DNA of 64,000 bases from Burkholderiales bacterium. GTDB lineage: Bacteria > Pseudomonadota > Gammaproteobacteria > Burkholderiales > SG8-39. The notes under the pieces were generated by a model, which saw only the letters and a program-made list of their open reading frames with translations, was not told where the DNA came from and did no database searches. Location: positions 37,235-101,234 of the forward strand of contig JBASCW010000042.1 in the NCBI GenBank assembly GCA_049651845.1. The letters run 5' to 3'. Made by a program: the position numbers and the translations under genes. Positions 9,502 through 33,486 of the stretch are shown one piece after another. Positions within the stretch are counted from its first letter, which is position 1. The number at the start of each line of letters is the position of its first letter.

Positions 9502-9927
9502 TCAGCGTTGCGCGAGTTGCGCCTGGCGCACGTCAATCGCGCGGCGCTCTGCCTGCCCGACTTCGCGGTCCAATCTTTCCTGGCGGCGCAAGTAGCGGGC
9601 GTTGACGACGATGCCGCCGGGCACCCTGTCGCTCTCGCCAGCCAGCGGCGCCATGGCCTTGCTGCGTTTCTGCTGGGCCTGCGCGAGCCTGCGCTCCGCC
9701 TCGAGTACGTTGACAGCGGCGGAGAGCCGCGCGGGAACGAGAGACCGTCTGCCGCGCGCCTTGGGCGCGTCGGAGTCCGCGGCAGCCTTCGGAACAGCTT
9801 CCGGAATTGTGTCGGCGCGATCGCTGAACGTCTTGTGGCCGTCGAGGCTGACCGTCGTGTAGATCGCCTGGGCCGATGCCGTTGTGGCGACAAGCGCGAG
9901 CGCGGCAGCGAGCAAGGTGGATTTCAT
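9502..9927 (-). CDS. DUF4124-like secreted protein
   Basis: Start MKSTLLAAALALVATTASAQA (signal peptide) at 9927, then IYTTVSLDGHKTFSDRAD typical of DUF4124; box 33 nt upstream. Confidence 0.7.
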   Translation of the reverse strand: MKSTLLAAALALVATTASAQAIYTTVSLDGHKTFSDRADTIPEAVPKAAADSDAPKARGRRSLVPARLSAAVNVLEAERRLAQAQQKRSKAMAPLAGESDRVPGGIVVNARYLRRQERLDREVGQAERRAIDVRQAQLAQR

Positions 9928-9960
9928 TTCCAGACTATCCACGCAACGCGAGCGACGGTC

Positions 9961-9976
9961 TGTGTGCTGCCCTACA
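9961..9976 (-). promoter_or_regulatory. Island box o (TGTAGGGCAGCACACA toward 9927)
   Basis: 9/12 defined consensus positions; exactly 33 nt from ATG 9927; GATAGT at +22..27. Confidence 0.5.
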
Positions 9977-10014
9977 TACTCACTCCGCGGTTTGCCGAGT
10001 GCCAAGGCGTCGCG

Positions 10015-10048
10015 AAAAGGCCCGGAGCGAAAATGCCGCTGCCGGGCC
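10015..10048 (-). terminator. Rho-independent terminator after the collagen-like gene
   Basis: Minus strand GGCCCGGCAGCGG-CATTTT-CGCTCCGGGCC followed by TTTT. Confidence 0.5.
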
Positions 10049-10074
10049 CGGACCTGCTTGCTGGAACAAAATGC

Positions 10075-10986
10075 TTAGAGGCTGCTCACCAGCACCTGGA
10101 CCTGGCGGTCACGTTGCAGCTTGGGATCACCGAAGCTGCCATATTGGATCTTATACGCCGGCACGCCCGCCTGCAGCAGCGCGTTACGCACGCTGGCGGC
10201 GCGGTCGCTGGTTCCGTCAAGGGCGACGGTGGCGTTCGGGTTCTGGTTCAGGTAGTTCACGATATCGGACACTTTGCTGTATTCCGAAGCACGCAGTTCC
10301 GACCTGTTGGCATCGAACCAGATGTCGCGGTACGGCGACCAGCGGCCGGGAGCGCCGGCAATGCCGCCCGGGCCTTGCTGACCCGTCGCGCCGATCGCGC
10401 CTTGCGGGCCGGTTGCGCCAGTCGCGCCTGTCGGGCCGGCTACGCCCAGCATCTCGGTGTTGCCCCGCGCTCCCGTGAATCCGGTTGCGCCTTGCGCGCC
10501 GGTGGCTCCCGTCGCGCCAACCGGGCCGGTCGGACCTTCGCGGGTCGGGCCTTGCGCGCCCGTGCTGCCGGCCACGCCTCGCAAGCCCGTAGCGCCCGTC
10601 GCACCCGTCGGACCGGCAGGCCCGGCGATGCTGGAGCCTTGCGCGCCCGTGGCGCCCATCGCGCCTTGCGCGCCCGTCGCGCCGGTAGCACCGGTCGCGC
10701 CCGCGCGGCCGACCACCATCTTGCCCTCGCTGCCCGTCGCGCCGACCGGACCTTGCATGCCTTGCGCGCCCGTGGCGCCCGTCGCGCCTGTCGGTCCGGC
10801 CATCGCCGAACCGGCCGCGCCTGTGGCGCCGGTGTAGCCTTGTGCGCCGGTCGCGCCGGTCGCGCCGGTCGGGCCGGCTGGGCCGACGTAGCTCACCGGC
10901 TCATTGGCGGGCTGCGTCGTTGCGCAACCTGCGGCGAACGCGGCGATCACGGCGAGTGACAGCGCGCTTTTCATTGCTGTTTTCAT
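10075..10986 (-). CDS. Collagen-like (G-X-Y repeat) lipoprotein with degenerate OmpA-like C-terminal domain
   Basis: 303-aa ORF; lipobox AAFAAGC (Cys21); aa 35-216 are G-X-Y triplets; C-terminus [10 protein letters not shown]...[34 protein letters not shown] resembles an OmpA C-like domain. Confidence 0.85.
10339..10884 (-). repeat. Collagen-type GXY coding repeat (five 29-codon units plus a longer terminal block)
   Basis: Five blocks of exactly 9 GXY triplets separated by 2-residue breaks (MA, VV, IA, RE), then EML and 12 more triplets; GATGATGAQ recurs. Confidence 0.85.
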
Positions 10987-11103
10987 GGCAAATCCTTTTG
11001 ATGACCAATGTTAGGTGCGCACGCCATCGAATTCGTTCGTAGCGGAATCGTGGGTGCGCACTACGATTCGTAAGTCAACTTACGCGGTCCGATCGTCTCA
11101 TTC

Positions 11104-11119
11104 CGTTCGTTGGCACACA
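11104..11119 (-). promoter_or_regulatory. Island box n (TGTGTGCCAACGAACG toward the collagen-like gene)
   Basis: 9/12 positions; followed by GAA and TAAGTT at +22..27; about 90-nt structured leader. Confidence 0.4.
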
Positions 11120-11140
11120 GAGCGGCGCATTTCACTCGAG

Positions 11141-12274: not shown

Positions 12275-12275
12275 G

Positions 12276-12839
12276 TTACTTCTTGATGCTCATTTCGTTG
12301 CCGATACCCGTCACGCCGTCCACTTTGCGGGTGATCGCGACGGCCTGGTCGATCTGCGCCTGGCTGTCGACGAAGCCGCTGAGCTGAACTTCGCCCTTGC
12401 GGGTGACGACGGCGATGTCGAAACTCTTGACGCCTGGATCGGCAAGCAATGCCGATTTCACCCTGGTGGTGATGATGCCGTCATCGACCTGGCTGCCCGC
12501 CGTGGTGTTCCCGGTTTTCAGGCTGACGTTGCTCTCGATGCCCTTGACGCCCTCGACGCCTGCCGTCGCCTCGAGTGCGCGGTCGATCTGCGCCTGGCTG
12601 TCGACGAAGCCGCTGAGTTGGACCACGCCCTTGCGCGTTTCGACTTTCAGATCGAAGCTCTTGATGTCAGCGTCGGCGAGCAGCGCCGATTTCACTTTCG
12701 TCGTGATCACGGTGTCGTCGATCTGCGTGCCTACCGTGGTGCTCGCGGCAGCCGACGGAGCCGGGTCCTGCCAGATACCGCAGCCTGCGGCAAGGACGCT
12801 GACCGCGCCCAGGATGAGGAGTTTGCGTTCGATGTACAT
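12276..12839 (-). CDS. BON-domain lipoprotein (OsmY-like, two BON domains)
   Basis: 187-aa ORF; lipobox LAAGC; two repeats of IDDxxITTKVKSALLAD...VxTRKGxVQLSGFVDSQAQID. Confidence 0.85.
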   Translation of the reverse strand: MYIERKLLILGAVSVLAAGCGIWQDPAPSAAASTTVGTQIDDTVITTKVKSALLADADIKSFDLKVETRKGVVQLSGFVDSQAQIDRALEATAGVEGVKGIESNVSLKTGNTTAGSQVDDGIITTRVKSALLADPGVKSFDIAVVTRKGEVQLSGFVDSQAQIDQAVAITRKVDGVTGIGNEMSIKK

Positions 12840-12902
12840 GAGGGTGGAATCCGGGGAAGAAGAAGGAGGAGGACGATCTTCGGCTCACTGCCGCGCACGG
12901 TC

Positions 12903-12918
12903 TGTACGCTGGCGAGCA
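12903..12918 (-). promoter_or_regulatory. Island box a (TGCTCGCCAGCGTACA toward BON/AI-2E operon)
   Basis: 11/12 positions; followed by GAC and GAAGAT at +22..27. Confidence 0.55.
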
Positions 12919-12974
12919 TAGGCGGCGCGCGCTGGCGTCCGCGCAGGAGTCCGTCGTTCCGGAAATGGGGCTTC

Positions 12975-12990
12975 TGTACGCTGGCGTACA
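12975..12990 (+). promoter_or_regulatory. Island box b (TGTACGCTGGCGTACA toward Crp paralog 1), perfect palindrome
   Basis: 12/12 positions; 33 nt from ATG 13024; CTACAT/TACATT at +22..28. Confidence 0.6.
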
Positions 12991-13023
12991 TACGCTGGCG
13001 GCGATGGGTGACTACATTCGGCG

Positions 13024-13719
13024 ATGCTGGAAAACAGTCTGCTGGCCGCGATGCCCCGCCAGGCGAGCCGGCGCATGCTCTCGGGGCTCGAGCCAGTCAC
13101 GCTGGCCTTCGGTGACGTGCTCTACGAGCCCGGACAAGCCATCCGGGATGTCTACTTTCCCGGCGCTTCCCTGGTGTCCTTGCTGACGCTGGCGGACGGG
13201 CATCTGGCGCTCGAAGTCGGGCTGATCGGCCGGGAAGGCATGGTCGGCATACCGCTGATCCTGGGACACAGCCTGTCGCCGGTGCGCGCGCTGGTCCAGG
13301 GCAGCGGGTCGGCGCTGCGCATGGCGGCGGCACCCTTCCGCAAGGAACTGCGGCGCAACCCGGCGCTGCAGCGAGAGCTTTACCGCTACACCTACACGTT
13401 GATGGCGCAGATCTCGCAGACCGCGGCCTGCAACCGCTTTCACGTGGTCGATCAGCGCCTCGCGCGCTGGCTGCTGATGACCCACGATCGCATGAAGTCG
13501 GACCGGTTCCATATGACGCACGAGTTCCTCGGACACATGCTGGGCGTACGTCGGGTCGGCGTCACCAAGGCGGCCCAAACGCTGCAGGCGCGCGACCTGA
13601 TCAGCTACAGCCGCGGCGACATCACGGTACTCGACCGCAAGGGTCTCGAGGCCGCTGCCTGCCAGTGCTATGAGGTCGTCAAGGACATGCACGACGGCAG
13701 GCAGGCTGGCAGCGCATAG
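13024..13719 (+). CDS. Crp/Fnr-family transcriptional regulator (paralog 1)
   Basis: 231-aa ORF; cNMP-binding-like beta-barrel then HTH MLGVRRVGVTKAAQTLQARDLISYSRG; paralogous to 15769..16536 and 34838..35647. Confidence 0.85.
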   Translation: MLENSLLAAMPRQASRRMLSGLEPVTLAFGDVLYEPGQAIRDVYFPGASLVSLLTLADGHLALEVGLIGREGMVGIPLILGHSLSPVRALVQGSGSALRMAAAPFRKELRRNPALQRELYRYTYTLMAQISQTAACNRFHVVDQRLARWLLMTHDRMKSDRFHMTHEFLGHMLGVRRVGVTKAAQTLQARDLISYSRGDITVLDRKGLEAAACQCYEVVKDMHDGRQAGSA

Positions 13720-13798
13720 AAAAAGGCCCGGAACGGGGTTGCCGTTTCGGGCCTAGTGTTGCAGGTGTTCGTCTAAGGGAGGAGAAGGGCGAACACCC
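13720..13798 (-). ncRNA. Candidate box-driven small RNA with CU-rich (anti-SD) loop and intrinsic terminator
   Basis: Box c, CATGAT -10, predicted +1 at 13798; GGTGTTCG/CGAACACC stem with loop CCCTTCTCCTCCCTTAGA; terminator GGCCCGAAACGG-CAAC-CCCGTTCCGGGCC plus TTTTT; no conserved ORF. Confidence 0.45.
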
Positions 13799-13831
13799 GT
13801 GAACATCATGTCCCGGCACACAGACTATTTC

Positions 13832-13847
13832 CGTGCGCTGGCGAACG
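13832..13847 (-). promoter_or_regulatory. Island box c (CGTTCGCCAGCGCACG toward sRNA candidate)
   Basis: 10/12 positions; lies in a 21-nt stretch identical to 34751-34771; CATGAT at +22..27. Confidence 0.5.
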
Positions 13848-13854
13848 CAAGCGA

Positions 13855-15511: not shown

Positions 15512-15527
15512 TGCGTGGCAGCACACA
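15512..15527 (-). promoter_or_regulatory. Island box p (TGTGTGCTGCCACGCA toward OmpA-like gene), weakest copy
   Basis: 8/12 positions but first 11 nt identical to box o; GAT then CATGCT at +22..27. Confidence 0.35.
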
Positions 15528-15556: not shown

Positions 15557-15572
15557 TGTAGGCCGGCGCACG
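15557..15572 (+). promoter_or_regulatory. Island box m (TGTAGGCCGGCGCACG toward lmo0937-type gene)
   Basis: 10/12 positions; GAA then GATGAT at +22..27; SD AAGGAGA before ATG 15627. Confidence 0.5.
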
Positions 15573-19115: not shown

Positions 19116-19131
19116 TGTGCGGCTGCGCACA
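19116..19131 (-). promoter_or_regulatory. Island box i (TGTGCGCAGCCGCACA toward HK-RR-Crp operon)
   Basis: 11/12 positions, 6-4-6 palindrome; GAC then CATGGT at +22..27. Confidence 0.55.
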
Positions 19132-19144: not shown

Positions 19145-19983
19145 TCAGGGCGACGGGCAGGGCGCCTCGAAGCGGCGCGCCGCGTCGGACCAGTCGACGA
19201 CGGTCCACCACTGCTTCAGGTAGTCGCCGCGGCGGTTCTCGTAATTCAGGTAGTAGGCGTGTTCCCAGACGTCGTTCACGAGCAGCGGGTACTGGCCCTG
19301 CACGAGGGGATTGCCGTGCCCGAAGGTGGTCAGGATCTCGAGCCTGCCGTCGTTGTGCTGCGACCGGGTCAGCCAAATCCAGCCCGAGCCGAAGTAGTTC
19401 GCGCCCGCATCCTAGAATTGCGACTTGAACCGCTCGAAGCTGCCGAATTCGTCGTTGATCGCAGCGGCCAGCGCACCCGTGGGCGCGCCGCCCCCGTCGG
19501 GTGACATGGCGCGCCAGAACAGGCTGTGATTGACGTAGCCGCCGGCATTGTTGCGGATCGCCGCCTGCGCGGCATCAGGGATGCGGATGAGATTGAGCAG
19601 CAGCCAGGCCGCCGAACGCTGGTGCGGATCCGGATACTGCTCGATCGCCGAGTTCAGCTTCTTCACGTACGACGCGTGATGCTTGCCGTGATGCAGCTGC
19701 ATGGTGCGCGCGTCGATGTGCGGCTCCAGCGCGTCGTGCGCGTAGGGCAGGGCCGGGAGCAGGTGCTTCGCGCAAGGTTCCACTAGATCGTCCATCTGGG
19801 CGCCGATGCGGGCGGGCTGGCGTAGTGCTCGGTCGGCGCAGGCGACGGCATGGGCTTGCGCTTGTCGGGCACCGCGCCGCCCGCAGCGCCACGCGCAGGC
19901 GGCACATAGGCCGACTGATGGATCGCCGCCGCGGTGGCGGCGGGTACCAGCAGGAGCAGCGCAAGGATGACCGCGTGTTTCAT
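19145..19983 (-). pseudogene. Fe/Mn superoxide dismutase, disrupted (in-frame TAG at 19412-19414; signal-peptide ORF in a different frame)
   Basis: LPALPYAHDALEPHIDARTMQLHHGKHH...FKSQF*DAGANYFGSGWIWL...DVWEHAYYLNYENRRGDY; the 66-aa MKHAVILALLLLVPAATAAA ORF (19783-19983) overlaps the SOD ATG (19795) out of frame. Confidence 0.6.
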
Positions 19984-20016
19984 GCCGCGATTGTCGTTTC
20001 GCCAGCCGGGCGTTTC

Positions 20017-20032
20017 TGTGCGTTGTCGAACA
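20017..20032. promoter_or_regulatory. Island box j (TGTGCGTTGTCGAACA), equidistant from two divergent ATGs
   Basis: 10/12 positions; 33 nt to ATG 19983 (-) and 33 nt to ATG 20066 (+); GACAAT and TAAATA at +22..27. Confidence 0.55.
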
Positions 20033-20065
20033 GAACTGCGCGTCGTTCTGGCGTAAATACGCAGT

Positions 20066-20293
20066 ATGAAATCCTTCCTCGTCGCCGGAATCGTCATGAT
20101 CGTGCTGGGCGGAATCTCGCTCGGCTACAACTACACCTACACGACCAAGGAGACGGTGCTCCAGGTCGGGCCGCTCAAGGCCGTTGCCGAGGAGTCGCAT
20201 ACCGTGGCGGTGCCGGCGATCCTGGGGTGGGTGCTCGTCGTCGGCGGCATCTGCGTGGTCGCCTTCGGCGCCCTATCCAAGAAGAGTTCGTAA
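20066..20293 (+). CDS. Small two-TM membrane protein (75 aa)
   Basis: MKSFLVAGIVMIVLGGISLG...ILGWVLVVGGICVVAFGAL; two hydrophobic helices; box 33 nt upstream. Confidence 0.6.
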   Translation: MKSFLVAGIVMIVLGGISLGYNYTYTTKETVLQVGPLKAVAEESHTVAVPAILGWVLVVGGICVVAFGALSKKSS

Positions 20294-20366: not shown

Positions 20367-20477
20367 ATGGCCAAAGGTCAGCTCAGAAGCAACCGCGAGA
20401 AGAAGAAGCCCAAGCAGGCCAAGAAGCCCGTGATCCCGCCTTCGCCGTTCAGGCTGCCGGCGCCAAAAGCTCGATAG
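20367..20477 (+). CDS. Possible small basic protein (36 aa), low confidence
   Basis: MAKGQLRSNREKKKPKQAKKPVIPPSPFRLPAPKAR; not in the track; overlaps the 3' end of the convergent glucan synthase gene by 29 nt. Confidence 0.3.
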   Translation: MAKGQLRSNREKKKPKQAKKPVIPPSPFRLPAPKAR

Positions 20478-23400: not shown

Positions 23401-26400
23401 GGCATTGGCGTAGATGATCGAGCTGGCCAGGCGCCCGTAGAGCTGCGCTTCGGCCTCGGTGACGTTGATCTGTCGTAGCGCGACCTGGCTGTGCGTCCAT
23501 GCCATTTCGAATGCGCGGTCGGCGAGGCGCCGATCCTGGTATTTCTCCACCAGCTGGAGGCAGCCCGCGCGGCTGTCGCCGACGCCGATGACCAGGTCCA
23601 GCGTGGCCGTCTGCGCCGGCTCGAGGGTGACGCGCTGCCGGATGGCGACGATCGGGTCAAGCACCGAGCCCTCGCTGCCCGAGAGCGGAGCGGGATCGCG
23701 CAGCGCCTGCGGCGCGGCGACGCTGTTGCCGCGGCCGACGAAGCGAGCGCGGTCCGTCTCGTAGGAAACGGCCTCCACTTCTGCGCCATGCACCGCCATC
23801 AGGTGCAGCATCCACGGTGTCGTCTCGCCGCGCGAGCGCGGCCGGCGCGTGCACAGGATCGCCTGGCGCGCGGCAATGATCTCGGTCTGCACGAACAGGC
23901 TGCTGAACGCCGGATGGAGCGCGTCGGCGGAGGGGGAGGCGAGCACCACCTCCGCATAGCTGGTCACTTCGATCGTGCGGCGCGATCGCGAACGGTTGGT
24001 GACGCGTACCCGGCGCAGCTCGATATCATCCTCCGGCGACACCACGATCTCGGTATGCGTGTCGAAGTTCGCGTCGTGGCGGCGGAATTCCACGCGCTGC
24101 TCGGTGAAGATCGCCTCGTAGGATTCGGTACGCTTGAGCGCAGGCTGAAGCGCGCAAGACCAGACCTGGCCGCTCGCGGTGTCGCGCAGGTAGCAGAACG
24201 AGCCCCAGTTGTCGGCGGTGCTGTCCTCGTGCCAGCGCGTGACGGCGAGGTCCTTCCAGCGGCTGTAGCCGCCGCCGGCGTTCGTGATCATCACGTTGTA
24301 GCGGCCATTGGAGAGCAGTTGCACGCCCGGGATCCTCGTATCCGGCGTGCTGAAGACGCGCATCGGCATCTCGGGAATCTCCGCGACAGCGCGAAAATCG
24401 ATCCATTCGGGAATCGTCGAGTACGACGCCGTGGCCCTCGGCACCCGCTCCTGCAGCAGCAGCAGGGTCGCCTGGAAGAGCGGATCCGAGACGAAGCGCC
24501 GCTGCATCGGCCGGTCGAGCAGGACGTGGGACAGGGCGAGGAAGCTCATGCCCTGGTGGTGGGCCATGAACGAACGCACGACCGCGCTGGTCTCCGCGCG
24601 GCGCAGGCGCGCGGGCGTGTAGTCGATCGCCTCGTAGAAGCCGAATTTGCCTAGCAGGCCGTCGGCCGCGAGCCGCTTCAGGTTGGCGCACGCCGCCTCG
24701 GGCGCGACCATCAGTGCGAGCGCCGTGGCATACGGCGCGATCACCAGGTCCTCGCTCAGGCCGCGCTTGAGGCCGAGGCCCGGAACGCCGAAAGCACGGT
24801 ACTGGTAATTGAGCGCTGCATCGACCGTGTTGTACCCGCACTCCGACATGCCCCACGGCACGCCGCGTTGCGCGCCATAGTCGATCTGGCGCCGGACCGC
24901 TGCGCGGCAGCTCTCATCGATCAGCGTGTTCTCATAGCTGGGCATCACCAGCAGCGGCATCAGGTACTCGAACATCGAGCCGCTCCAGGACAGCAGCGTC
25001 GCTCCGCTGCCCGCGTTGGTGAGCAGCCGTCCGAGCGCAAACCAGCTCTGCTGCGGCAGCTGCCCCTGGGCGATGGCGACGAAACTGGTCAGGCGCGCTT
25101 CCGATGCGAGCAGGTCGTAGTAGCTGGCATCGCGCCTGCGCTCGGTCGCGTGGTGTCCGCGCCTGCGCTCGGTGACGTTGTGCCCGATCATCAGCAGATG
25201 CCGCACGTCGTCGTACAGGAAGTTGTAATCCATGCGTGCCATTTCGCCCGCCTGCAGGGCGAGTTGCGCGATTTCCTCCATGCGTGCGCGCGCGGCGGAA
25301 ACGCCTCGCGCAGCCAGCTCGCGCAGCGTGGGTATGCCGTGCTCGCCCGGCATCGCGGAGGGCGGCGCCAGCAGGCGCAGTTCGCCCAGGGCATCCCGGC
25401 ACTGGCGATCGAGCGCGCGTACCCAGGCGGCGTGCTCTGAATCCGATTTCTCTCCCAGCTCTGCCAGCACCAGTGCGGCGTCCTTCGCCAGCGCATCGAG
25501 CATCCGTCGCGAGGCAGCGAGCGTGGCTGGGCGGTCCGCCAGCGCCGATTCGAGCTGATGCCGGAAACTGCGCAGCGCATTCGTGGACGCCGCTGGCGCG
25601 CAAGCGTGTAGCGCGTGAAGGGTGTCTTCCAGGCCTTCCCGCCAGCGCGCCGCGAGGATGGGCTGATCGGCCAGCGCGGCGATGCCCGGCCGCAGCGTCA
25701 GCAGGTGGCCCGCCAGGTTGCCGCTGTCGACCGTGGAAACGTACATCGGCAGCAGCGGCAGCAGCGAGGCGGTATCGTACCAGTTGTAGAAGTGGCCGCG
25801 GTAGCGTTCCAGCTTGTGCATTGTCGCGAACGCATTGCGCGTACGCTCGATGAGCGTGCCTGCGGACACATAGCCGAAATCGTACGCCGAGAGGTTCGCG
25901 AGCAAAGACAGCCCCATATTCGTGGGGGAGGTGCGGCGGGCGAGCGCCGTGGCTGGACTCTCCTGGTAGTTGTCCGGCGGCAGCCAGTGGTCTTCCGGCC
26001 CTACGAAGGTCTCGAAGAAAGCCCAGGTCTTGCGGGAAACCAGGCGCAGGAACGAGATCTGCTCCGGGGAGAGTACCGCCTGCGGTCGCTCAAGCGGCCG
26101 GCCCAGCCACCAAGCGAGCAGCGGAGACGCGAGCCACAGGAGCAGGATCGGAACGGCCACCGCCAACGCTCCGGGGCGCACCTGCAAGAGGTACACCGCC
26201 GTGCTGATCGCCACGATCGGCGCGATCCACATCTGGCGTAGGGAATCCGTAAAGCGGCCGCCGGGATCGAGCTCGCTCGAGGCCGTCCACTCGAGTAGGT
26301 GCCGGCGCGTGATGAGGACGCGCACCGAGGTGCGCAGGATCGCGTCCAGGCTGGTGCTGGCCTCAAAGGGCAGGCAGGCGAACGTGAACACCGTCTGCGC

Positions 26401-29130
26401 GAGGCGCGTTCCCGCAGCGCGCATGGCCCCGACCAGATGCTGGCGCAGCGAGGCATCGTCCGGCTTGCGAAACAGCTCCACCATCCAGGCGCACGCCGCG
26501 GGAATCAGCAGCACCGCCAGCACGGCCGCGGTCCAGAGCCAGGCGGGCGACAGGAGCGCCCAGCCAAGCAGCAGCAGCAGGGTGAGGGCCGGGGCGACCA
26601 GGCTGCGGCGCAGGTTGTCGAGGATCTTCCACTGCGACAGGCCGGAGAGAGGATTCTTCTGCGTGCCGCCATCGCCCGCGGCAACGCGCCGGCGCAGCCA
26701 GCCGAGCAGCTGCCAGTCGCCGCGCATCCAGCGGTGCCGCCGGGCCACATCGGCGCTGTAGCGGGCCGGATACTGCTCGTAGAGTTGCACGTCGCTCGCC
26801 AGGCCGGAGCGCGCATAGCATCCTTCCAGCAGATCGTGGCTGAGGATGCGGTTGTCCGGGAAACGACCCTTCAGCGCCCGCTCGAATGCTTCGACGTCGT
26901 AGATGCCCTTGCCGATGAACGAGCCTTCGCCGAACAGATCCTGGTAGACATCGGAAACCATGCGTGTGTACGGATCGATGCCGGCTTCCTCGCCGTGCAG
27001 CTGGGCATAGCGCGTGCGGTTGCTGTCCGCCACGCTCACCGCCACGCGCGGCTGCAGTATTCCGTAGCCTTGCGTCACGCGTCCGCTCGCCTCGTCGTAC
27101 CGCGCGCGATTGAGCGGATGCGCCATCGTGGCCGCGAGCAGGCGCGCCGAGTCGCGCGGCAGCTGCGTGTCGCTGTCCAGCGTGATCACGTATCGCACGC
27201 CGGACAGGACGGCGGTGCGGCCGACCACGCGCGAGAATGCGCCAGGCGCGCCGCCGCGCAGCAGCGCATTCAGATCGCCCAGCTTGCCGCGCTTGCGCTC
27301 GCGGCCCATCCAGACGCCCTCGCGCGGGTTCCAGAGGCGCGGACGATGGAGCAGGAAGAAGACATCGCCGTCCCCCGCGCCTGCGTCGCTGCGGTATTTG
27401 TCATTCAACGCCGCGATGCGCTGCGCCGCCAACTGCAGCAGCGGCTCGTCCTGGGGCAGCGTTTCAGCGTGCGCATCGGCAAAATCCGTGAGCAGGCAGA
27501 ACCGAAGGTGCTCGTCGCGGTTGCCGAGGAAGCGGACCTCGAGCGACTCGACCAGATCCTCGACGTTCTGCGTGCTGTGGATGAGCGTCGGCACCACGAC
27601 CAGCGTCTGCGCGTCCGGCGCTATGCCCTTGGCGAAATCCAAGCGCGGCAGCACCTTCGGCGCCACCAGCAGCGTTGCCAGCCAGTTCACCAGGGCCACT
27701 GCGAGTTGGCTGGTGGCGAGCAACGCCAGCATCCCGCAAAGCACCAGGAACCAGCCCCGCGCCCCGCCGGCATGGGCCTGCGCAAGCAAGGCCCCGGTGA
27801 AGGCCGCCGTGATCAGCAGGATCGGGCCGAGATAGAGGTAGCGGCGGCGGACGCGCCGCAAGCGAAGGGAAAGGGGAACCCGCATCCGGGTCGCCTCTTC
27901 CAGCTGCCGCAGCCCTGTGTCGAAGAGGTAGAAACCGACATGTCTTGCCCGCTCGTCGCCGTCGCTGCGCGCCGCGGCTTCCTGCGCGAGCTGAACGCAG
28001 CGGCGCGCCGCCTGTTCCTCGGCGAGTCCGCTGCGCCTGGCGATCTTCTCCAGCACGTGGCGATAGTGGTCGCGGGTGGCGAAGTCCATGCGGCCGTACA
28101 CGCCGCCGGGGTCCTCGCGCAGAATGCTCTCGACGACGCTCATCGACTCGACGAAGGCATGCCAGTCGGTCGCGGCCAGCAGGCGCAGGCTGCCGATACT
28201 GTTGCTGATCGACACCTGGTCGGCCGCCTGCTGCTGGTTCTCCGCCTGCACCAGCTGCTCGATGGAAAGGCCCAGTTCCGAGAGCCGCTGCTCGATCCAG
28301 TTGAGCGGCATGGCCAGCGCCGCGCTCTGTCCTTGCAAGCGGCGCGCAAGTTCCGCCACGAATGGACCGCTCATGGGCGGGTTGGAACGCGCCATGTCCG
28401 CGACCACCAGGATCAGGCTCTTGGGGTCGTTCTGGGTGGTCTCCATCATCTCGCCCGCCCAGAAATCGGCCAGGTCCCGGCCTCTGCGGTGAGCGATGAT
28501 GCGGGTTGCGACGCGGCGCAGGTTCTCGATCAGCGCCAGGCGCAGCATGATCGGCACGGCCCACAGTTCGCCGAGGGTCAGATGGGTGACGGTCTGGTAG
28601 GCGCTGATGAAGCGGCCGAAGCTGTCGGGATCCATCTGCCCGTCGCCATGGGAAATGGTCTCCAGGGCGATGTCATAGACGCGCGGCAGTCCGGCCGACG
28701 GCCCATTGTCCAGGCGCGGCAGCTCCCGGCTGTAATCCCTGGGCAGGTGCCGCCTCGCGGTGCGGATCTGCTCCTCGATCAGGTGGAAGTTGTCCAGCAG
28801 CCATTCGCCGGCGGGCGTGCTTGCGCGTCCGTCCTTGATCGCCGCTGTGAGCAGGTCGCAGGCTTCGAGCAGCACGCCCTGGTTTTCCGCAAGGCGCGCG
28901 AGCAGCAGGTCGCGGGTGCGCCTTGCCCCCAGCGCGTGCGAGGCCGCCAGCGCCTTGCCGTACTGCTCCATCTGGTCGGCGCTGAACAGCTCGGAGCGCA
29001 GCGGCGGCTCTTCGACGGGGTGATCCGCGGTCCAGCCGCCGCGCCGGAACAGCGTCAGTGACTGGAGCAGGATTCGCGCAAGGAAGTTGCCGCTGCTTTT
29101 CAGTGGTCCTGCCTCATGCGATGCCGGCAA
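20449..29130 (-). CDS. ndvB: Cyclic beta-1,2-glucan synthase (NdvB/ChvB/Cgs type: GT84 glycosyltransferase + TM region + GH94 phosphorylase)
   Basis: 2893-aa ORF, the size and architecture of this family; N-terminal PLRSELFSADQMEQYGKALAASH, DSDTQLPRD and RHRWMRGDWQLL GT motifs, TM helices, long C-terminal GH94-like region; TTG start, no SD. Confidence 0.9.
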   Translation of the reverse strand: MPASHEAGPLKSSGNFLARILLQSLTLFRRGGWTADHPVEEPPLRSELFSADQMEQYGKALAASHALGARRTRDLLLARLAENQGVLLEACDLLTAAIKDGRASTPAGEWLLDNFHLIEEQIRTARRHLPRDYSRELPRLDNGPSAGLPRVYDIALETISHGDGQMDPDSFGRFISAYQTVTHLTLGELWAVPIMLRLALIENLRRVATRIIAHRRGRDLADFWAGEMMETTQNDPKSLILVVADMARSNPPMSGPFVAELARRLQGQSAALAMPLNWIEQRLSELGLSIEQLVQAENQQQAADQVSISNSIGSLRLLAATDWHAFVESMSVVESILREDPGGVYGRMDFATRDHYRHVLEKIARRSGLAEEQAARRCVQLAQEAAARSDGDERARHVGFYLFDTGLRQLEEATRMRVPLSLRLRRVRRRYLYLGPILLITAAFTGALLAQAHAGGARGWFLVLCGMLALLATSQLAVALVNWLATLLVAPKVLPRLDFAKGIAPDAQTLVVVPTLIHSTQNVEDLVESLEVRFLGNRDEHLRFCLLTDFADAHAETLPQDEPLLQLAAQRIAALNDKYRSDAGAGDGDVFFLLHRPRLWNPREGVWMGRERKRGKLGDLNALLRGGAPGAFSRVVGRTAVLSGVRYVITLDSDTQLPRDSARLLAATMAHPLNRARYDEASGRVTQGYGILQPRVAVSVADSNRTRYAQLHGEEAGIDPYTRMVSDVYQDLFGEGSFIGKGIYDVEAFERALKGRFPDNRILSHDLLEGCYARSGLASDVQLYEQYPARYSADVARRHRWMRGDWQLLGWLRRRVAAGDGGTQKNPLSGLSQWKILDNLRRSLVAPALTLLLLLGWALLSPAWLWTAAVLAVLLIPAACAWMVELFRKPDDASLRQHLVGAMRAAGTRLAQTVFTFACLPFEASTSLDAILRTSVRVLITRRHLLEWTASSELDPGGRFTDSLRQMWIAPIVAISTAVYLLQVRPGALAVAVPILLLWLASPLLAWWLGRPLERPQAVLSPEQISFLRLVSRKTWAFFETFVGPEDHWLPPDNYQESPATALARRTSPTNMGLSLLANLSAYDFGYVSAGTLIERTRNAFATMHKLERYRGHFYNWYDTASLLPLLPMYVSTVDSGNLAGHLLTLRPGIAALADQPILAARWREGLEDTLHALHACAPAASTNALRSFRHQLESALADRPATLAASRRMLDALAKDAALVLAELGEKSDSEHAAWVRALDRQCRDALGELRLLAPPSAMPGEHGIPTLRELAARGVSAARARMEEIAQLALQAGEMARMDYNFLYDDVRHLLMIGHNVTERRRGHHATERRRDASYYDLLASEARLTSFVAIAQGQLPQQSWFALGRLLTNAGSGATLLSWSGSMFEYLMPLLVMPSYENTLIDESCRAAVRRQIDYGAQRGVPWGMSECGYNTVDAALNYQYRAFGVPGLGLKRGLSEDLVIAPYATALALMVAPEAACANLKRLAADGLLGKFGFYEAIDYTPARLRRAETSAVVRSFMAHHQGMSFLALSHVLLDRPMQRRFVSDPLFQATLLLLQERVPRATASYSTIPEWIDFRAVAEIPEMPMRVFSTPDTRIPGVQLLSNGRYNVMITNAGGGYSRWKDLAVTRWHEDSTADNWGSFCYLRDTASGQVWSCALQPALKRTESYEAIFTEQRVEFRRHDANFDTHTEIVVSPEDDIELRRVRVTNRSRSRRTIEVTSYAEVVLASPSADALHPAFSSLFVQTEIIAARQAILCTRRPRSRGETTPWMLHLMAVHGAEVEAVSYETDRARFVGRGNSVAAPQALRDPAPLSGSEGSVLDPIVAIRQRVTLEPAQTATLDLVIGVGDSRAGCLQLVEKYQDRRLADRAFEMAWTHSQVALRQINVTEAEAQLYGRLASSIIYANASLRAEASVIAKNRRGQSGLWGYAISGDLPIVLVQLRDPANIELVRQLVQAHAYWRLKGLAVDLVIWNEERGGYRQLLHDQIMGLIAAGVEAHVIDRPGGIFVRSAEQISNEDRILLQSVARAVFTDSQGTLKEQVKQRPEVEAAMAPFAASRLRAAETARGAAAADEAAVPPRELALANGLGGFTPDGREYVITTTTAQATPAPWVNVLANPHFGCVISESGAAYTWHENAHEFRLSPWHNDSVGDASGEAYYLRDEETGQVWSPTALPCPGTGNYVSRHGFGYSVFEHSEGGIATELTVYVDLDSPVKFAVLKVRNGSGRPRRLSATGYVEWVLGALRSKSSMHVVTEIDPNSGALLARNAYNPEFGEQVAFFDVDDVTRTLSGDRTEFIGRNGTLRNPAALERARLSGRVGAAMDPCAAIQVPFDLADGSSREIIFRLGVGRGTDDASRLVQRLRKSSTASVALEAVRQYWKTTLGVVQIETPDPSLDVLCNGWLLYQTMASRLWGRSGHYQSGGAFGFRDQLQDVMALVHASPQLVREHLLLCASRQFLEGDVQHWWHPPSGRGVRTRCSDDYLWLPLATCRYVSCTGDSAVLKEQIQFLDGRPVNADEDSYYDLPLRSLQAASLYQHCVRAIENGLRMGFHGLPLMGSGDWNDGMNLVGAQGRGESVWLGFFLYQVLTQFAVLARGENDAPFAERCESEAVRLRRNIEAHAWDGGWYRRAYFDVGTPLGSAANAECQIDSIAQSWSVLSGAGTPERSKLAMNALDQRLVRRDHALVQLLDPPFDRSELDPGYIRGYVPGVRENGGQYTHAAIWASMAFAAQGDAVRAWELLDMINPLHHGDTPEGIAVYKVEPYVVAADVYAVPPHTGRGGWTWYTGSAGWMYRLILESLLGLRLAADKLHFAPCLPADWQGLELRYRHKETMYRIALRQATGGDAAMTVSVDGVLQADSTIALVDDRAEHQVEVTLRRQPIELLAPAA

Positions 29131-29264: not shown

Positions 29265-29280
29265 TGTACGCTAGCGCACA
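29265..29280 (-). promoter_or_regulatory. Island box d (TGTGCGCTAGCGTACA toward glucan synthase leader)
   Basis: 12/12 positions; GAC then CATCAT at +22..27; 6 nt after the upstream gene's stop codon. Confidence 0.6.
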
Positions 29281-29286
29281 GAAGCG

Positions 29287-30402
29287 CTAGATGGCAACGA
29301 GTGCGCCGTTTTCAATCCTGACCCGGCTGCCGACGCTGAATGCGGGCTGTGCGGGGTAGGAAACCGTTTGCGAGCCGCCGTTCTCCAGGCGCACCACCAA
29401 GTCGAAGTGCTTGGTGGATTTCATCTTTTTCTCGATTTCATTGCCGGCCCAGGCACCGCCCGCGGCGCCGGCGATCTGGGCCACGGTGGTGCCCGTGCCA
29501 TGGCCGACCTGGCTGCCGAGCAGCGCGCCGACCACGCCGCCGCCGATCATGCCGATATAGCTGCCGTCGCCCTTGACCTCGACCACGTTGATCGCCTCGA
29601 CCACGCCGCAATTGGGACAGATCTGGCGCGCGGCGGGCGCCGGTGCCGCCGCCTGGCGGCCAGTCGTGCGCTGCCGTGCGGATGAGCTGTCGACCAGCGG
29701 CTTGCCAAGGACCTTGCTGTGCTCCTGCTGGCCGATGCGCAGGTTCCCCGTGACGACCGCATTGGTTGCGATCCTGTCGCGATTCCTGATGGTGTACGCA
29801 CCCTCGTAGGCGCCGGCCCTGACTTCCTCCAGGTTGATCTTGCCGCGGACGCCGTTGATCCTGACGCTGGCGTTGCCGCTTGGGCTGCCCTCGAGAGCGA
29901 AAACGAGTTCCGAGCCCGGCGTGAGGCTGCGCGGCGGATCCACGTTGAAGAGGTTGATTTCCGGGACGCTGTTCGCGGCCGCCGAACCGCCCGGCCAGCG
30001 GAAGCCGGAGCCCTTCACCAGCGATTCGTCGAGAACGCTGCTGGCCACCTGATTGCCCCGGCGCAGATTGGCCGTGGCGGTGCTGTCCTCGGTGATCTGG
30101 TCGCGCCGGGTGATGGTGTAGATGCCTTCGTAGACGCCGGCTTCGATTTCTTCCAGGATCAGGCTCCCGGTCGCTCCGCCGATGCGCACGGTCGCGGTAC
30201 CAGCGGGGCTGCCGTAAAGCGTGAACACGAGCTCGCTGCCGGCGACCGGCTTCGCGGTGGGTACGACATCGAAGCCATCGATTCTGGGAGCCGCGTTCTG
30301 CGACGCGGACTGCTGCGCCAGCACGGTGTTCGAAGGGAGCGCCAGTGGCAGGAACGCTGCCAGTGCGAGGAGGGTTGCGCCGAGTCCGTGGTTTAGGTTC
30401 AT
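29287..30402 (-). CDS. Secreted protein: two tandem ~90-aa beta-rich repeats + CxxC/glycine-zipper 2TM module
   Basis: 371-aa ORF; signal peptide; repeats aa 39-127 and 147-236 (GSELVFxLxGSPxGxAxVRIxG...EEhxAGxYEGxYTI); C-terminus CPNCGVV...GGGVVGALLGSQVG...GNEIEKK. Confidence 0.75.
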   Translation of the reverse strand: MNLNHGLGATLLALAAFLPLALPSNTVLAQQSASQNAAPRIDGFDVVPTAKPVAGSELVFTLYGSPAGTATVRIGGATGSLILEEIEAGVYEGIYTITRRDQITEDSTATANLRRGNQVASSVLDESLVKGSGFRWPGGSAAANSVPEINLFNVDPPRSLTPGSELVFALEGSPSGNASVRINGVRGKINLEEVRAGAYEGAYTIRNRDRIATNAVVTGNLRIGQQEHSKVLGKPLVDSSSARQRTTGRQAAAPAPAARQICPNCGVVEAINVVEVKGDGSYIGMIGGGVVGALLGSQVGHGTGTTVAQIAGAAGGAWAGNEIEKKMKSTKHFDLVVRLENGGSQTVSYPAQPAFSVGSRVRIENGALVAI

Positions 30403-30435
30403 CGGCGCATCTTTGCGCTTCGCTGTCCGGCCGTC

Positions 30436-30451
30436 CGTACGCTATCGCACC
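30436..30451 (-). promoter_or_regulatory. Island box e (GGTGCGATAGCGTACG toward 30402)
   Basis: 9/12 positions; 33 nt from ATG 30402; GAC then AAAGAT at +22..27. Confidence 0.5.
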
Positions 30452-30574: not shown

Positions 30575-30590
30575 TGTTGGCAAGCGCACA
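30575..30590 (+). promoter_or_regulatory. Island box k (TGTTGGCAAGCGCACA toward 30645)
   Basis: 11/12 positions; CAAAGT at +22..27; SD AAGGAGA before ATG 30645. Confidence 0.45.
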
Positions 30591-30644
30591 GAGCGAGTCC
30601 GGCAAGAGGGGCAAAGTGGCAATCAGCAAACAAGGAGAACGGAA

Positions 30645-31154: not shown

Positions 31155-31226
31155 CGCTCCAGAAAGGCACAAGCATGGCGTGTGTGTCAGGCAGTCCGGA
31201 TCCAACTCAAACTGAAGGAACTGAAA

Positions 31227-31439
31227 ATGAACTGGGATCGCATCGAAGGCAACTGGAAGCAATTCAAGGGCAACGTGAAGGAGCAGTGGGGCAAGCTCAC
31301 CGACGATCAGCTCGACGTGATCGCCGGCAAGCGTGACAACCTGGCCGGGAAGATCCAGGAGGCGTACGGGATTTCCAAGGATCAGTCGGAGAAGCAGATC
31401 GCCGACTGGCACAAGCGCATGGAGCAGAAATATCCATAG
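31227..31439 (+). CDS. CsbD-family stress protein
   Basis: MNWDRIEGNWKQFKGNVKEQWGKLTDDQLDVIAGKRDNLAGKIQEAYG is the canonical CsbD pattern. Confidence 0.85.
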   Translation: MNWDRIEGNWKQFKGNVKEQWGKLTDDQLDVIAGKRDNLAGKIQEAYGISKDQSEKQIADWHKRMEQKYP

Positions 31440-31476
31440 AGCGGCACCGGCAAGTCGTCAAACCGCGCGCTGGTTG

Positions 31477-31492
31477 TGTACGGTGGCGTACG
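31477..31492 (+). promoter_or_regulatory. Island box f (TGTACGGTGGCGTACG toward entericidin-like gene)
   Basis: 10/12 positions; GAC then TATCGT at +22..27. Confidence 0.5.
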
Positions 31493-31544
31493 GACCGGCA
31501 GCGCTGCGCCCACTATCGTGGCACTTCACGACAGGAGATCGACC

Positions 31545-31697
31545 ATGACCAAACGAATTCTCGCGCCGCTGCTGGCGGCACTCTTCATTTCCGGTCTTTT
31601 CGGCACGCTCGCGGGATGCAACACCGTGGAGGGCGCCGGCAAGGACATCGAGCAGGGCGGCAGGGCGATCAAGAACGAGGCGCGAGAACAGCGCTGA
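31545..31697 (+). CDS. Entericidin EcnA/B-family lipoprotein (50 aa)
   Basis: MTKRILAPLLAALFISGLFGTLAGCNTVEGAGKDIEQGGRAIKNEA; lipobox LAGC plus NTxxGxGKDI motif; SD AGGAGA. Confidence 0.8.
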   Translation: MTKRILAPLLAALFISGLFGTLAGCNTVEGAGKDIEQGGRAIKNEAREQR

Positions 31698-31735
31698 GCC
31701 GGCTGCCGGCGTCCAATACCGCGCGCTGATCCGCC

Positions 31736-32848
31736 GTGCGCGTGGCGCCTGCCCTGCTGCGCGAATGGCCGCTGGTTGCGGTCGTCGCGACCACCATCCT
31801 GTTTCTGGCCTTCGGGCGGCGACTGCGCGCCGACCTGGCGCATCCGGTCCAGTTCGCTTTCATCCTGGTCTGGCTGGTAGCCGCGATCCTCGCGGCCGTA
31901 TTCGCGGTGGTGCGGCATGCCGAGGGGCTCGCCGCACGCCTGGGCGAGCCCCTGGGCACCCTGGTATTGACGCTGTCGATCACCGGGATCGAGGTGATGA
32001 TCATCGTCGCCGCGATGTCCACGGGGCACGGCAGCCCCACGCTGGCGCGCGATGCGATGTTCGCGGTGATCATGATCGTCCTGAACGGCATGGTCGGACT
32101 GACGCTGCTCGTCGGCGGGCTGAAGTACCGCGAGCAGGACTACAACCTGCAGGGCGCGAATGCCTTCCTGGCGGTGATCCTGCCGCTGGCCATCGTCGGC
32201 CTGGTGCTGCCGAACTACACCATCTCATCGCCCGACAAGACGTTTTCGCCCGGCCAGGCGGCGTTCCTCACGCTCGTGTTCCTAGCGCTGTACGGCGTGT
32301 TCCTGACCATCCAGAACATCCATTACCGGGCCTACTTCCGGTCGACCGTCGAGGCGAACAAGGCCAAACCGCCGCCGCGCGGGAGCAAGGAGTGGCACTC
32401 CATTCCCTACCATGTGCTCCTGCTGCTGGCGTACTTGGGGCCGTTGACGGTGCTCGCGGAACAGCTCGCAGTGCCGATCGACCACACCATCCGCGTGCTG
32501 GGCGCACCGGTCGCGCTGGCGGGTTTCCTCGTCGCAGCGATCGTGCTCGCGCCCGAATCGGTCGTCGCGGTGCGCGCTGCGGCGAGCAACGACCTGCAAA
32601 GGGCCGTCAATGTCCTGCTCGGGTCGGTGCTTGCTAGCATCGGCTTGAGCATTCCCGCCATCCTCATCTACGGGCTGCTGGCCGGCGTGCCGATCGTCCT
32701 CGGCCTGGACCAGGTGGGCATCACGCTGCTGGCGCTGACTCTGGTCCTGTGCATGATGACCTTCTCGAGCAGCCGTACCCATGTGCTGCTCGGGGCGGTG
32801 CACCTGGTGGTGTTCCTCGCGTACGCAATGCTGGTGTTTCACACCTAG
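31736..32848 (+). CDS. Ca2+/H+ antiporter (CaCA/ChaA-like)
   Basis: 370-aa polytopic ORF with two internal alpha-repeat regions (GTLVLTLSITGIEVMIIV / APESVVAVRAAASNDLQRAVNVLLGS); GTG start. Confidence 0.75.
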   Translation: MRVAPALLREWPLVAVVATTILFLAFGRRLRADLAHPVQFAFILVWLVAAILAAVFAVVRHAEGLAARLGEPLGTLVLTLSITGIEVMIIVAAMSTGHGSPTLARDAMFAVIMIVLNGMVGLTLLVGGLKYREQDYNLQGANAFLAVILPLAIVGLVLPNYTISSPDKTFSPGQAAFLTLVFLALYGVFLTIQNIHYRAYFRSTVEANKAKPPPRGSKEWHSIPYHVLLLLAYLGPLTVLAEQLAVPIDHTIRVLGAPVALAGFLVAAIVLAPESVVAVRAAASNDLQRAVNVLLGSVLASIGLSIPAILIYGLLAGVPIVLGLDQVGITLLALTLVLCMMTFSSSRTHVLLGAVHLVVFLAYAMLVFHT

Positions 32849-32918
32849 GCACCGCGTTCCGCCAGCCCTGCCAGTCCCGCATGCGGTCGAGCCGCGACGG
32901 CCGGCCGCTTCGCTCAGC

Positions 32919-33437
32919 CTAGCTGCGGCCCAGATCCTGGATCGCGTCGACCACCATGCCAGTACCGATCGCGATCATGAGGATGTCGGACGCGACTCGT
33001 ACGTAGCGGTAGCCGGACGGCGGCTGGCCGATCTGCAGCACCAGCGGCTGCGGCACCGAGTAAAAGACCACGTCGCGCGGCAGTTGCTGGCCCATATGCC
33101 ACTTCCTGGCCTGGCCCGGCGGCATGCAGCCGTTGTGCTTCTTGGCCAGTCCCGGGGGACAGCGCCCGCCGTGATTGTGCTCGTCGTAGTAATCGCGCAC
33201 CGCGACGCGATGGCGGTCCTCGAAATGCTCGCGCCTGTCGCTGTCGTGCGACCGCTTCCCGCCGGCATCACGATGCTCGTTCTTGTCAGAGCGCTGATGC
33301 TTGCCCGAGTGCTCGCTCCTGTCGGAGTTGCCCTTGCCGGCCGAGGCAGGCTTGTCCGCCATCGCCGGGCCGACCGCCAGGATTCCGGCGAACGCCAGGG
33401 CCAGGGTGCTTTTCAGTATCAGCGTGGTTGGTTTCAT
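32919..33437 (-). CDS. CigR/RcnB-like periplasmic protein
   Basis: Start MKPTTLILKSTLALAFAGILAVGPAMA at 33437; His/Asp/Arg-rich region then PPGLAKKHNGCMPPGQARKW...PPSGYRYVRVASDILMIAIGTGMVVD. Confidence 0.7.
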   Translation of the reverse strand: MKPTTLILKSTLALAFAGILAVGPAMADKPASAGKGNSDRSEHSGKHQRSDKNEHRDAGGKRSHDSDRREHFEDRHRVAVRDYYDEHNHGGRCPPGLAKKHNGCMPPGQARKWHMGQQLPRDVVFYSVPQPLVLQIGQPPSGYRYVRVASDILMIAIGTGMVVDAIQDLGRS

Positions 33438-33470
33438 CAGGCCAGTATTCCTTCCGGCGGGCAGGCGGTC

Positions 33471-33486
33471 TGTGCGCCAACACACA
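33471..33486 (-). promoter_or_regulatory. Island box l (TGTGTGTTGGCGCACA toward 33437)
   Basis: 10/12 positions; 33 nt from ATG 33437; GAC then AATACT at +22..27. Confidence 0.5.

Follow-up and report, generated by a model that had tools for sequence, protein, structure and literature searches.

This report concerns a palindromic promoter element, called the box below, and six genes whose ATG start codons stand at one fixed distance from it. They lie on a stretch of 64,000 nucleotides (nt) of contig JBASCW010000042.1 (hereafter the window) from an uncultured soil Burkholderiales bacterium, with a guanine-plus-cytosine (GC) content of 67%. The boxes form an island that holds genes for three Crp/Fnr paralogues and a hybrid sensor kinase with response regulator. 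Other island proteins are small envelope or stress proteins, including BON, CsbD-type, glycine-zipper, entericidin, OmpA-like, DUF4124, and CigR/RcnB-like proteins, and a superoxide dismutase (SOD). The six genes encode a DUF4124-like protein, Crp paralogue 1 (Crp1), a membrane protein of 75 amino acids (aa), a 66-aa open reading frame (ORF) with a signal peptide, a 371-aa glycine-zipper protein, and a CigR/RcnB-like protein. Their messenger RNAs (mRNAs) are predicted to be leaderless, i.e., to begin with the start codon itself (Table 1).

The box and its island

Together with its conserved flanks, the 16-bp box makes up a 20-bp palindrome, T[C/A]TGT[G/A]CG-N4-CG[C/T]ACA[G/T]A; the arms of the box read TCTGTGCG-N4-CGCACAGA. 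A position weight matrix, trained partly on the window's own sites, detected 16 boxes of at least 18 bits in the window, compared to 0.02 expected from Markov-1 simulated sequence. All of them fall within positions 9961-34812, and the scan of the window found no box of this strength outside that interval. Those at 9961, 30436, and 33471 are weaker matches to the 16-mer consensus (19-21 bits each) and still far above chance. In the window and 29 related genome loci, the core GT[AG]CG-N4-CG[TC]AC was matched 63 times versus 4.85 times in shuffled sequences, a 13-fold excess.

Comparison drew on 29 genome loci that surround relatives of Crp1, on 80 metagenome loci that surround relatives of the 75-aa protein, and on several contigs found by exact-protein look-up; 117 related loci entered the cross-locus promoter counts. 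Single loci are cited by L numbers.

Table 1. Boxes, -10-like hexamers, and genes of the island. Bit scores are those of the position weight matrix scan. Gap, nucleotides between box and start codon; offset, nucleotides between box and hexamer; SD, Shine-Dalgarno sequence. Promoter assignments and leaderless states are predictions.
Feature	Positions	Strand or direction	Details
Box TGTGTGCTGCCCTACA	9961-9976	leftwards	21.2 bits; promoter of DUF4124 gene
-10-like GATAGT	9934-9939	-	21 nt past box, 6 nt before ATG
Interval, box to ATG 9927	9928-9960	-	33 nt
DUF4124-like secreted protein, 141 aa, predicted leaderless	9502-9927	-	N-terminus MKSTLLAAALALVATTASAQA; weak Pfam DUF4124 match, E = 8e-4
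Box TGTACGCTGGCGTACA	12975-12990	rightwards	28.6 bits; promoter of Crp paralogue 1
-10-like TACATT	13013-13018	+	offset 22, 5 nt before ATG; alternative CTACAT at offset 21
Interval, box to ATG 13024	12991-13023	+	33 nt
Crp/Fnr-family regulator (Crp1), 231 aa, predicted leaderless and autoregulated	13024-13719	+	Pfam HTH_Crp_2, E = 5.5e-16
Shared box TGTGCGTTGTCGAACA	20017-20032	both	24.7 bits; between divergent genes
-10-like TAAATA	20054-20059	+	75-aa gene; lacks the usual final T
Interval, box to ATG 20066	20033-20065	+	33 nt
75-aa two-helix membrane protein, predicted leaderless	20066-20293	+
-10-like GACAAT	19990-19995	-	leftward promoter
Interval, box to ATG 19983	19984-20016	-	33 nt
66-aa signal-peptide ORF, predicted leaderless here	19783-19983	-	upstream of and overlapping SOD gene
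Box CGTACGCTATCGCACC	30436-30451	leftwards	20.9 bits; promoter of 371-aa gene
-10-like AAAGAT	30409-30414	-
Interval, box to ATG 30402	30403-30435	-	33 nt
371-aa secreted glycine-zipper protein, predicted leaderless	29287-30402	-	Pfam glycine zipper 2TM
Box TGTGCGCCAACACACA	33471-33486	leftwards	19.4 bits; promoter of CigR/RcnB-like gene
-10-like AATACT	33444-33449	-	GGAAGG abuts its upstream side, thus outside the predicted transcript
Interval, box to ATG 33437	33438-33470	-	33 nt
CigR/RcnB-like secreted protein, 172 aa, predicted leaderless	32919-33437	-	NCBIfam CigR family 40 bits, below cut-off
Box	11104-11119	leftwards	leadered, -10 TAAGTT; towards collagen-like OmpA-domain gene 10075-10986 (-)
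Box	12903-12918	leftwards	leadered, gap 63; BON-domain gene 12276-12839 (-)
Box	13832-13847	leftwards	-10 CATGAT; small RNA
Small RNA, ~80 nt	13718-13798	-	promoter box 13832-13847; no ORF in its path
Box	15512-15527	-	leadered; towards OmpA-like gene, ATG ~62 nt off
Box	15557-15572	+	leadered, gap 54, SD AAGGAG; 49-aa membrane protein from 15627
Box	19116-19131	-	leadered, gap 85, -10 CATGGT; operon 19030 down to 15769 with sensor kinase, response regulator, and Crp paralogue 2
Box	29265-29280	leftwards	-10 CATCAT; towards 2893-aa ORF
Box	30575-30590	+	leadered, gap 54, SD AAGGAG; gene from 30645
Box	31477-31492	+	leadered, gap 52, SD AGGAG; entericidin-like gene from 31545
Box	34753-34768	-	leadered, gap 68, SD AAGGA; gene from 34684
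Box	34797-34812	+	leadered, -10 TAGAAT; Crp paralogue 3, probable start TTG 34892

Start codons at a fixed distance from the box

The initial annotation had placed six ATG codons at exactly 33 nt from a box. All distances were re-read from the sequence and each of them is 33, including the two on either side of the shared box, which was rightly described as equidistant from the divergent ATGs. Over the 32 directions of the 16 window boxes, the number of ATGs per position at other gaps has a mean of 0.4 and a maximum of 4, which gives the six at gap 33 a Poisson P of 4e-6, or 6e-4 when corrected for 151 positions. When all ATGs after boxes are counted, gaps 22 and 25 outnumber gap 33; these ATGs were set aside because they lie within the -10 GATGAT of orthologous SD-led promoters and are not start codons.

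The spacing had also been taken to validate these ATGs as start codons, and the proteins themselves agree. A classic signal peptide begins at the methionine in four of the six products (MKSTLLAAALALVATTASAQA, MKHAVILALLLLVPAATAAA, MNLNHGLGATLLALAAFLPLALP, and MKPTTLILKSTLALAFAGILAVGPAMA); of the remaining two, one opens with a transmembrane helix and one is a Crp paralogue. NCBI annotation of a Burkholderiales metagenome-assembled genome (120.5-kb contig) gives the same 231-aa product for Crp1 (P0001) and the same 172-aa product for the CigR-like gene (P0121). A 75-aa ORF called as a gene upstream of SOD in L111 is 45% identical to the 66-aa ORF of the window, which marks the latter as a real small gene rather than a frameshifted SOD signal peptide. 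It could still be argued that the gap-33 ATGs are a product of chance or annotation and that translation begins at downstream in-frame codons, given that three of the six are internal to longer mechanical ORFs and that the 66-aa ORF is short and of low complexity. This is very improbable in view of the in-window spike, the signal peptides, the two NCBI starts, and the homologue in L111; furthermore, the sequence downstream shows no other start preceded by an SD.

The absence of an SD from five of the six, also annotated initially, was confirmed, as the SD core is missing from the 18 nt before each of these ATGs. The box-driven genes at longer gaps (15627, 30645, 31545, and 34684) are indeed SD-led. 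The remaining gap-33 gene, at 33437, has a GGAAGGAA run 10 nt upstream of its ATG and had been left as ambiguous. This case is now settled. The orthologues in L113 and L114 have the same AATACT and a gap of 33, and GCCGAC replaces GGAAGG, i.e., the run is not conserved whereas the -10 and the gap are.

Of 301 box directions, 112 have a -10-like hexamer (nAnnnT) at offset 21 and 27 have one at offset 22, over a background of about 6 (range 2-13). Base composition after the box shows the same element, as position 23 is A in 54% and position 27 is T in 53%, in DNA of 67% GC. The class II geometry assumed in the initial annotation thus matches the data, with the hexamer at offset 21 and occasionally at 20 or 22. 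More than 100 promoters have 29.5 bp between the centre of the site and the first -10 base. All six promoters of the window share one layout, which consists of the box, 21 (or 22) nt, the hexamer, about 5-7 nt, and the ATG; the -10 therefore lies directly upstream of the start codon, in the position of an SD. A rule with an obligatory final T missed the TAAATA of 20066 and was relaxed for the final count of 38 promoters described below.

A hexamer at offset 21 and a start 7 nt after the -10 put the centre of the box at -41.5, as measured relative to the -10, where it replaces the -35 element. The transcription start is then predicted to fall on the A of each of the six ATGs. The rigid 33-nt spacing had been singled out as unusual. 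The spacing itself was borne out, but it is no separate oddity, as it follows from a fixed distance between box and -10, a fixed distance between -10 and start, and the lack of a leader. At 17-bp spacing from the -10, the place of a -35 element is taken by the box end and its adjoining bases (e.g., CAGACC), with at most 3/6 matches to TTGACA. With no usable -35 hexamer, dependence on an activator is the natural reading. The site is a 20-bp palindrome, suited to a dimer, and the three HTH_Crp_2 proteins of the island are the predicted cognate regulators.

A leaderless transcript could also arise if the box were a repressor or autorepressor operator that covers the -35 region of a constitutive promoter. 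The Crp paralogues have boxes of their own upstream, autoregulation is frequently negative, and leaderless mRNAs of Burkholderiales are enriched in repressor-type regulators (PMC4603805, PMC7563307). Nevertheless, promoters with such a poor -35 should need an activator, one site symmetrically serves divergent promoters, and CRP, FNR, and NtcA canonically activate from -41.5 (PMC3898017). We consider repression quite unlikely.

In the mechanism that we propose instead, a dimeric Crp/Fnr-family activator would bind the palindrome at -41.5 in place of a -35 element and recruit RNA polymerase to a -10 that lies at offset 21 and is the only promoter hexamer present. Transcription would start at a purine 6-7 nt past the -10. 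In the six window promoters, and in about a sixth of such promoters in relatives, this purine would be the A (sometimes G) of the start codon, and ribosomes may bind the 5'-terminal AUG of the mRNA directly and translate it without an SD. The rest of the regulon would be transcribed with leaders of 17-50 nt, most of them containing an SD, and one promoter would make a small RNA (sRNA). We assign a probability of about 0.72 to the view that the six genes yield leaderless mRNAs from class II promoters of the Crp/Fnr activator type.

Orthologous promoters and the regulators

Conservation of the spacing in orthologues had been suggested as a check, with free variation as the contrary outcome. The distances found are bimodal, i.e., either 32-35 nt without an SD or about 50 nt and more, usually with an SD. 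The leaderless-type arrangement (gap 32-35) recurs in orthologues of five of the six gene families, the exception being the 66-aa ORF at 19983. When the loci are pooled, gaps of 33-34 stand out as a sharp peak (19 cases), those of 36-48 are sparse (13 cases spread over 13 positions), and those of about 49-70 form a broad maximum. Depleted gaps of 36-48 are expected only if a leader is either absent or long enough for a ribosome-binding site.

After pooling of all loci and removal of duplicates, a start codon follows a correctly placed -10 by 5-8 nt in 38 promoters. Among these, the gap is 33 in 18 promoters, 34 in 12, 35 in 4, 32 in 3, and 36 in 1; there are 32 ATG and 6 GTG starts, and the products represent at least 8 protein families that are unrelated. 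In 27 of 158 promoters, no more than 2 nt separate the first in-frame start from the predicted transcription start, compared to 4, 9, 6, and 11 when pseudo-starts shifted by -20, -10, +10, and +20 nt were used as a control. No start-codon spike was seen in box directions without a -10. An SD core precedes 1 of 23 leaderless-type starts versus 31 of 61 starts with leaders of 15-60 nt.

Single families illustrate both arrangements. DUF4124 orthologues have gaps of 33 (L110), 34 (L111), and 35 with GTG (L002), and no other arrangement was seen among them. Crp1 orthologues have gaps of 33-36. For the CigR-like gene the gaps are 33 (L113/L114), 34 (L115), and 56 with GGAGG (L013), and CsbD orthologues stand at 32/33 or at 68-69 with GGAGG. 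The 371-aa protein has an orthologue at gap 33 in L030 (MNLHNRLGVAFFALAAFLPL) and an operon-internal one without a box in L013. Leaderless-type orthologues of the 75-aa gene have gaps of 33 (L030) or 34 (L002, L031 with GTG, L037, and L111), and L035 is consistent with this up to the end of its contig; leadered ones (L032, L033, L034, and L014) have gaps of 55-68 with AGGAGA, GGAGC, AAGGAG, or GGAGA. More distant homologues of the 75-aa gene lack the box and have a GGAGA SD. Orthologue hexamers at the position of its TAAATA are TATCGT, GAATAT, GAAAAT, or AAAAGT.

The claim that one box serves two leaderless genes holds in part. It stands as a prediction for the window; relatives keep both -10s, but only the side of the 75-aa gene is of the leaderless type there. 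An offset-21 GACAAT, CACAAT, or AACAAT of the leftward promoter is conserved in L030, L031, L037, and L111, and the left-hand gene in relatives is SD-led or is another gene altogether. Next to this promoter, the Fe/Mn SOD gene (19145-19795, -) starts in a frame that differs from that of the overlapping 66-aa ORF. At 19412-19414, an in-frame stop (FKSQF*DAGANYFGSGW) replaces the Glu of relatives, which points to either a pseudogene or an error in the assembly.

A further way to explain the data is that the mRNAs have ordinary leaders. Another upstream promoter or a wrongly chosen -10 would then be responsible, the box would be an operator within the 5' region, and the 33 nt would reflect an operator-to-ATG module or something else. 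Some of the -10 hexamers are weak, the start position is calculated rather than mapped, many genes of this lineage have no recognisable SD anyway, and 33437 does have its purine run. However, box and -10 keep a fixed distance in more than 100 promoters, those of SD-led genes and the sRNA among them, GGAAGG is not conserved whereas the -10 and gap are kept, gaps of 36-48 nt are depleted, and the ATG tracks the box rather than the protein core. Ordinary leaders are thus unlikely.

Several points weigh against leaderless transcription of the six genes and keep our confidence limited. The poorest hexamers are TAAATA, without a final T, and AAAGAT and GACAAT, which match the consensus at 3-4 of 6 positions; the predicted start would hold only insofar as the -10-to-start spacing of E. 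coli applies. A second peak of first starts, at a leader of about 30 nt, is equally high (27), and the leaderless class is therefore a minority mode and not the rule. An SD was found in only 7 of 24 and 12 of 24 called genes of two related loci, which makes SD absence alone weak evidence. The cross-locus counts include orthologues and hence are not independent events. Six candidates start with GTG, a codon that serves leaderless translation poorly in E. coli. Finally, the leaderless state of 19983 recurs in no relative; its orthologues in L111 and L031 are SD-led, with AAGGAG and a gap of 50-56, the value in L111 being 50.

The Crp paralogues allow promoter and protein constraints to be separated. 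In 13 of them, the first possible start lies at gap 31-36, in three at 39-40, and the rest are leadered. Ahead of the conserved NxLLAALP motif, their N-terminal extension ranges in length between 3 and 15 codons. As the ATG stays near the box while the extension varies, the constraint acts on the promoter and not on the protein. The clade at gap 39-40 (L110 9215, L111 9214, and L002 9214, all +) would have a leader of only 5-7 nt without an SD and is intermediate between the two main gap classes. Crp paralogue 3 of the window has a strong box and a -10 (TAGAAT) but no ATG (34797-34892, +). It probably starts at TTG 34892, after AGGTG; this TTG aligns exactly with the leaderless ATG of paralogue 3 orthologues (MRAPHTPKQNHLL).

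Searches of the PDB and NCBIfam revealed no close characterised relative of the three HTH_Crp_2 paralogues, and the single PDB match is 3dv8, an unnamed Crp/Fnr protein (E = 1e-5). NtcA was rejected as an identity, with paralogue 3 scoring 28.6 bits against the TIGR03697 cut-off of 244.95 and paralogues 1 and 2 giving no match. We take the recognition helix RRVGVTK to resemble the RVTVTR of NtcA, which would fit the GT(A/G)-N8-(T/C)AC core. The family has thousands of members in soil metagenomes; homologues number roughly 8000 for Crp1 and 7400 for the CigR-like protein. Exact-protein look-up of Crp1 returned only a 1.8-kb duplicate contig, an identical contig being present in run SRR28011868, and the exact-sequence look-up of the 371-aa protein returned no match.

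The analysis fixes the true start codons of the six genes, which is of practical use because gene callers tend to extend such genes upstream. At L113 297 and L114 349, the CigR-like orthologue has been extended to an ATG that stands only 6 nt past the box and within the promoter. Among Crp1 homologues, many are on record with a length of 255-285 aa rather than about 226-231 aa.

Among the neighbouring genes, the box-associated lipoprotein at 10075-10986 (-) contains long stretches of collagen-like triplets (GxT/GAT-GAT), has an OmpA-like domain at its C-terminus, and is 80% identical to its L002 counterpart. The box-driven BON-domain gene (upstream region 12839-12902, -) has a leader of about 30 nt, yet no recognisable SD. 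A 2893-aa ORF (20449-29130, -) separates the 75-aa and 371-aa genes; as no more than about 300 nt separate these two in L030, a close relative, the giant gene looks like an insertion into the island.

A predicted co-regulated small RNA and comparison with known systems

One box of the island faces no ORF and instead precedes a predicted sRNA. The sRNA is conserved in syntenic position at 10 loci; its promoter has CATGAT at offset 21, followed by 6 variable nt and then by conserved sequence from exactly gap 33. The boundary between variable and conserved sequence coincides in position with the A of the six ATGs, which supports the predicted start. The order of elements is GGGUGUUCG, a CU-rich anti-SD-like loop (CUCCUCCC), CGAACACC, a terminator hairpin, and a U-run. 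The fold has a z score of -5.0, and the consensus structure begins at nucleotide 1 and includes four pairs with compensatory changes. At the Rfam gathering threshold, only a transfer RNA was found in the window. Assignment to ar14 or to the betaproteobacterial toxic sRNAs (CCUCCUCCC-loop) was rejected, with scores of 27.9 versus 58.8 bits for the alpha-proteobacterial ar14, the best match, and 12.9 versus 50 for RF02278; the CU-rich hairpin loop is the feature in common. The start downstream of box 29265-29280 (AGGTGTTC) resembles that of the sRNA. Identical 20-mers (TCCGTGCGCTGGCGAACGCA) occur 21 kb apart, at 13830-13849 in the sRNA promoter and at 34751-34770 in the promoter of gene 34684.

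The activator may co-induce leaderless mRNAs, SD-led mRNAs, and an sRNA whose CUCCUCCC loop mimics an anti-SD, i.e., a built-in translational bypass. We regard this idea as doubtful. If the sRNA masks SDs, leaderless members of the regulon, including regulators, would stay translated while SD-dependent messages are throttled, and switching between leaderless and SD-led states in orthologues would then tune which proteins escape. It is speculation that leaderless mRNAs are preferentially translated under stress, which would fit the gene content. In any case, the box marks out a previously uncharacterised Crp/Fnr regulon, abundant among soil Burkholderiales, whose proteins relate to the envelope and to stress. 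Natural orthologue pairs, leaderless versus SD-led under the same activator, offer material on the role of leaderless translation in Proteobacteria.

Class II promoters of Crp, Fnr, and NtcA, as well as single CRP sites that serve divergent promoters, are textbook knowledge. Reportedly, El-Robh and Busby carried out a systematic study in E. coli of a single CRP site activating two divergent promoters. Box 20017-20032 is likewise one palindrome equidistant from two starts; here, both transcripts are predicted to be leaderless. The cI mRNA of phage lambda, made from PRM, is leaderless and is activated by a dimeric regulator from about -42, beside the -35 region. PRM differs in that it serves a single phage gene, employs another regulator family, and is not part of a chromosomal regulon.

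The present promoters share with class II CRP, FNR, and NtcA promoters a Crp-family palindrome, a distance of 29.5 bp from its centre to the -10, and the lack of a -35. NtcA promoters have GTA-N8-TAC at about -41.5 (PMC3898017), and the box contains GT(A/G)-N8-(T/C)AC. Unlike the NtcA site, it belongs to a longer 20-bp palindrome with a CG-N4-CG core, the regulator subfamily is distant, and the host is a betaproteobacterium, not a cyanobacterium. The low-oxygen-activated (lxa) regulon of Burkholderia cenocepacia, with the Anr/Fnr-like motif TGA-N6-TCA of the TTGAT-N4-ATCAA type (PMC3721108), is also a clustered stress locus of Burkholderiales with Crp/Anr-like regulators and a palindromic promoter motif. 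It was rejected as an identity, as the motif here is TGT(G/A)CG-N4-CG(C/T)ACA and the gene content also differs.

The closest counterparts are leaderless genes mapped by differential RNA sequencing in two cultured Burkholderiales. In B. cenocepacia J2315, 72 genes have a transcription start exactly at the start codon, with a -10 directly upstream and an enrichment of regulators (PMC4603805). In C. metallidurans CH34, 4.67% of primary starts are leaderless (PMC7563307). The window's genes resemble these in bacterial order, in a -10 that takes the place of the SD, and in the over-representation of regulators, here the Crp paralogues. The mapped leaderless genes amount to a few per cent and are scattered genome-wide, and no common activator is named in the parts of the two reports considered here. 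In contrast, about a third of the promoters of one regulon (6 of ~17) are leaderless in the window, as predicted rather than mapped. Leaderless mRNAs and class II promoters are already known in Burkholderiales, and no new mechanism is revealed. What is new is the regulon with its motif, the high leaderless share under one activator, and the toggling of orthologues between leaderless and SD-led states.

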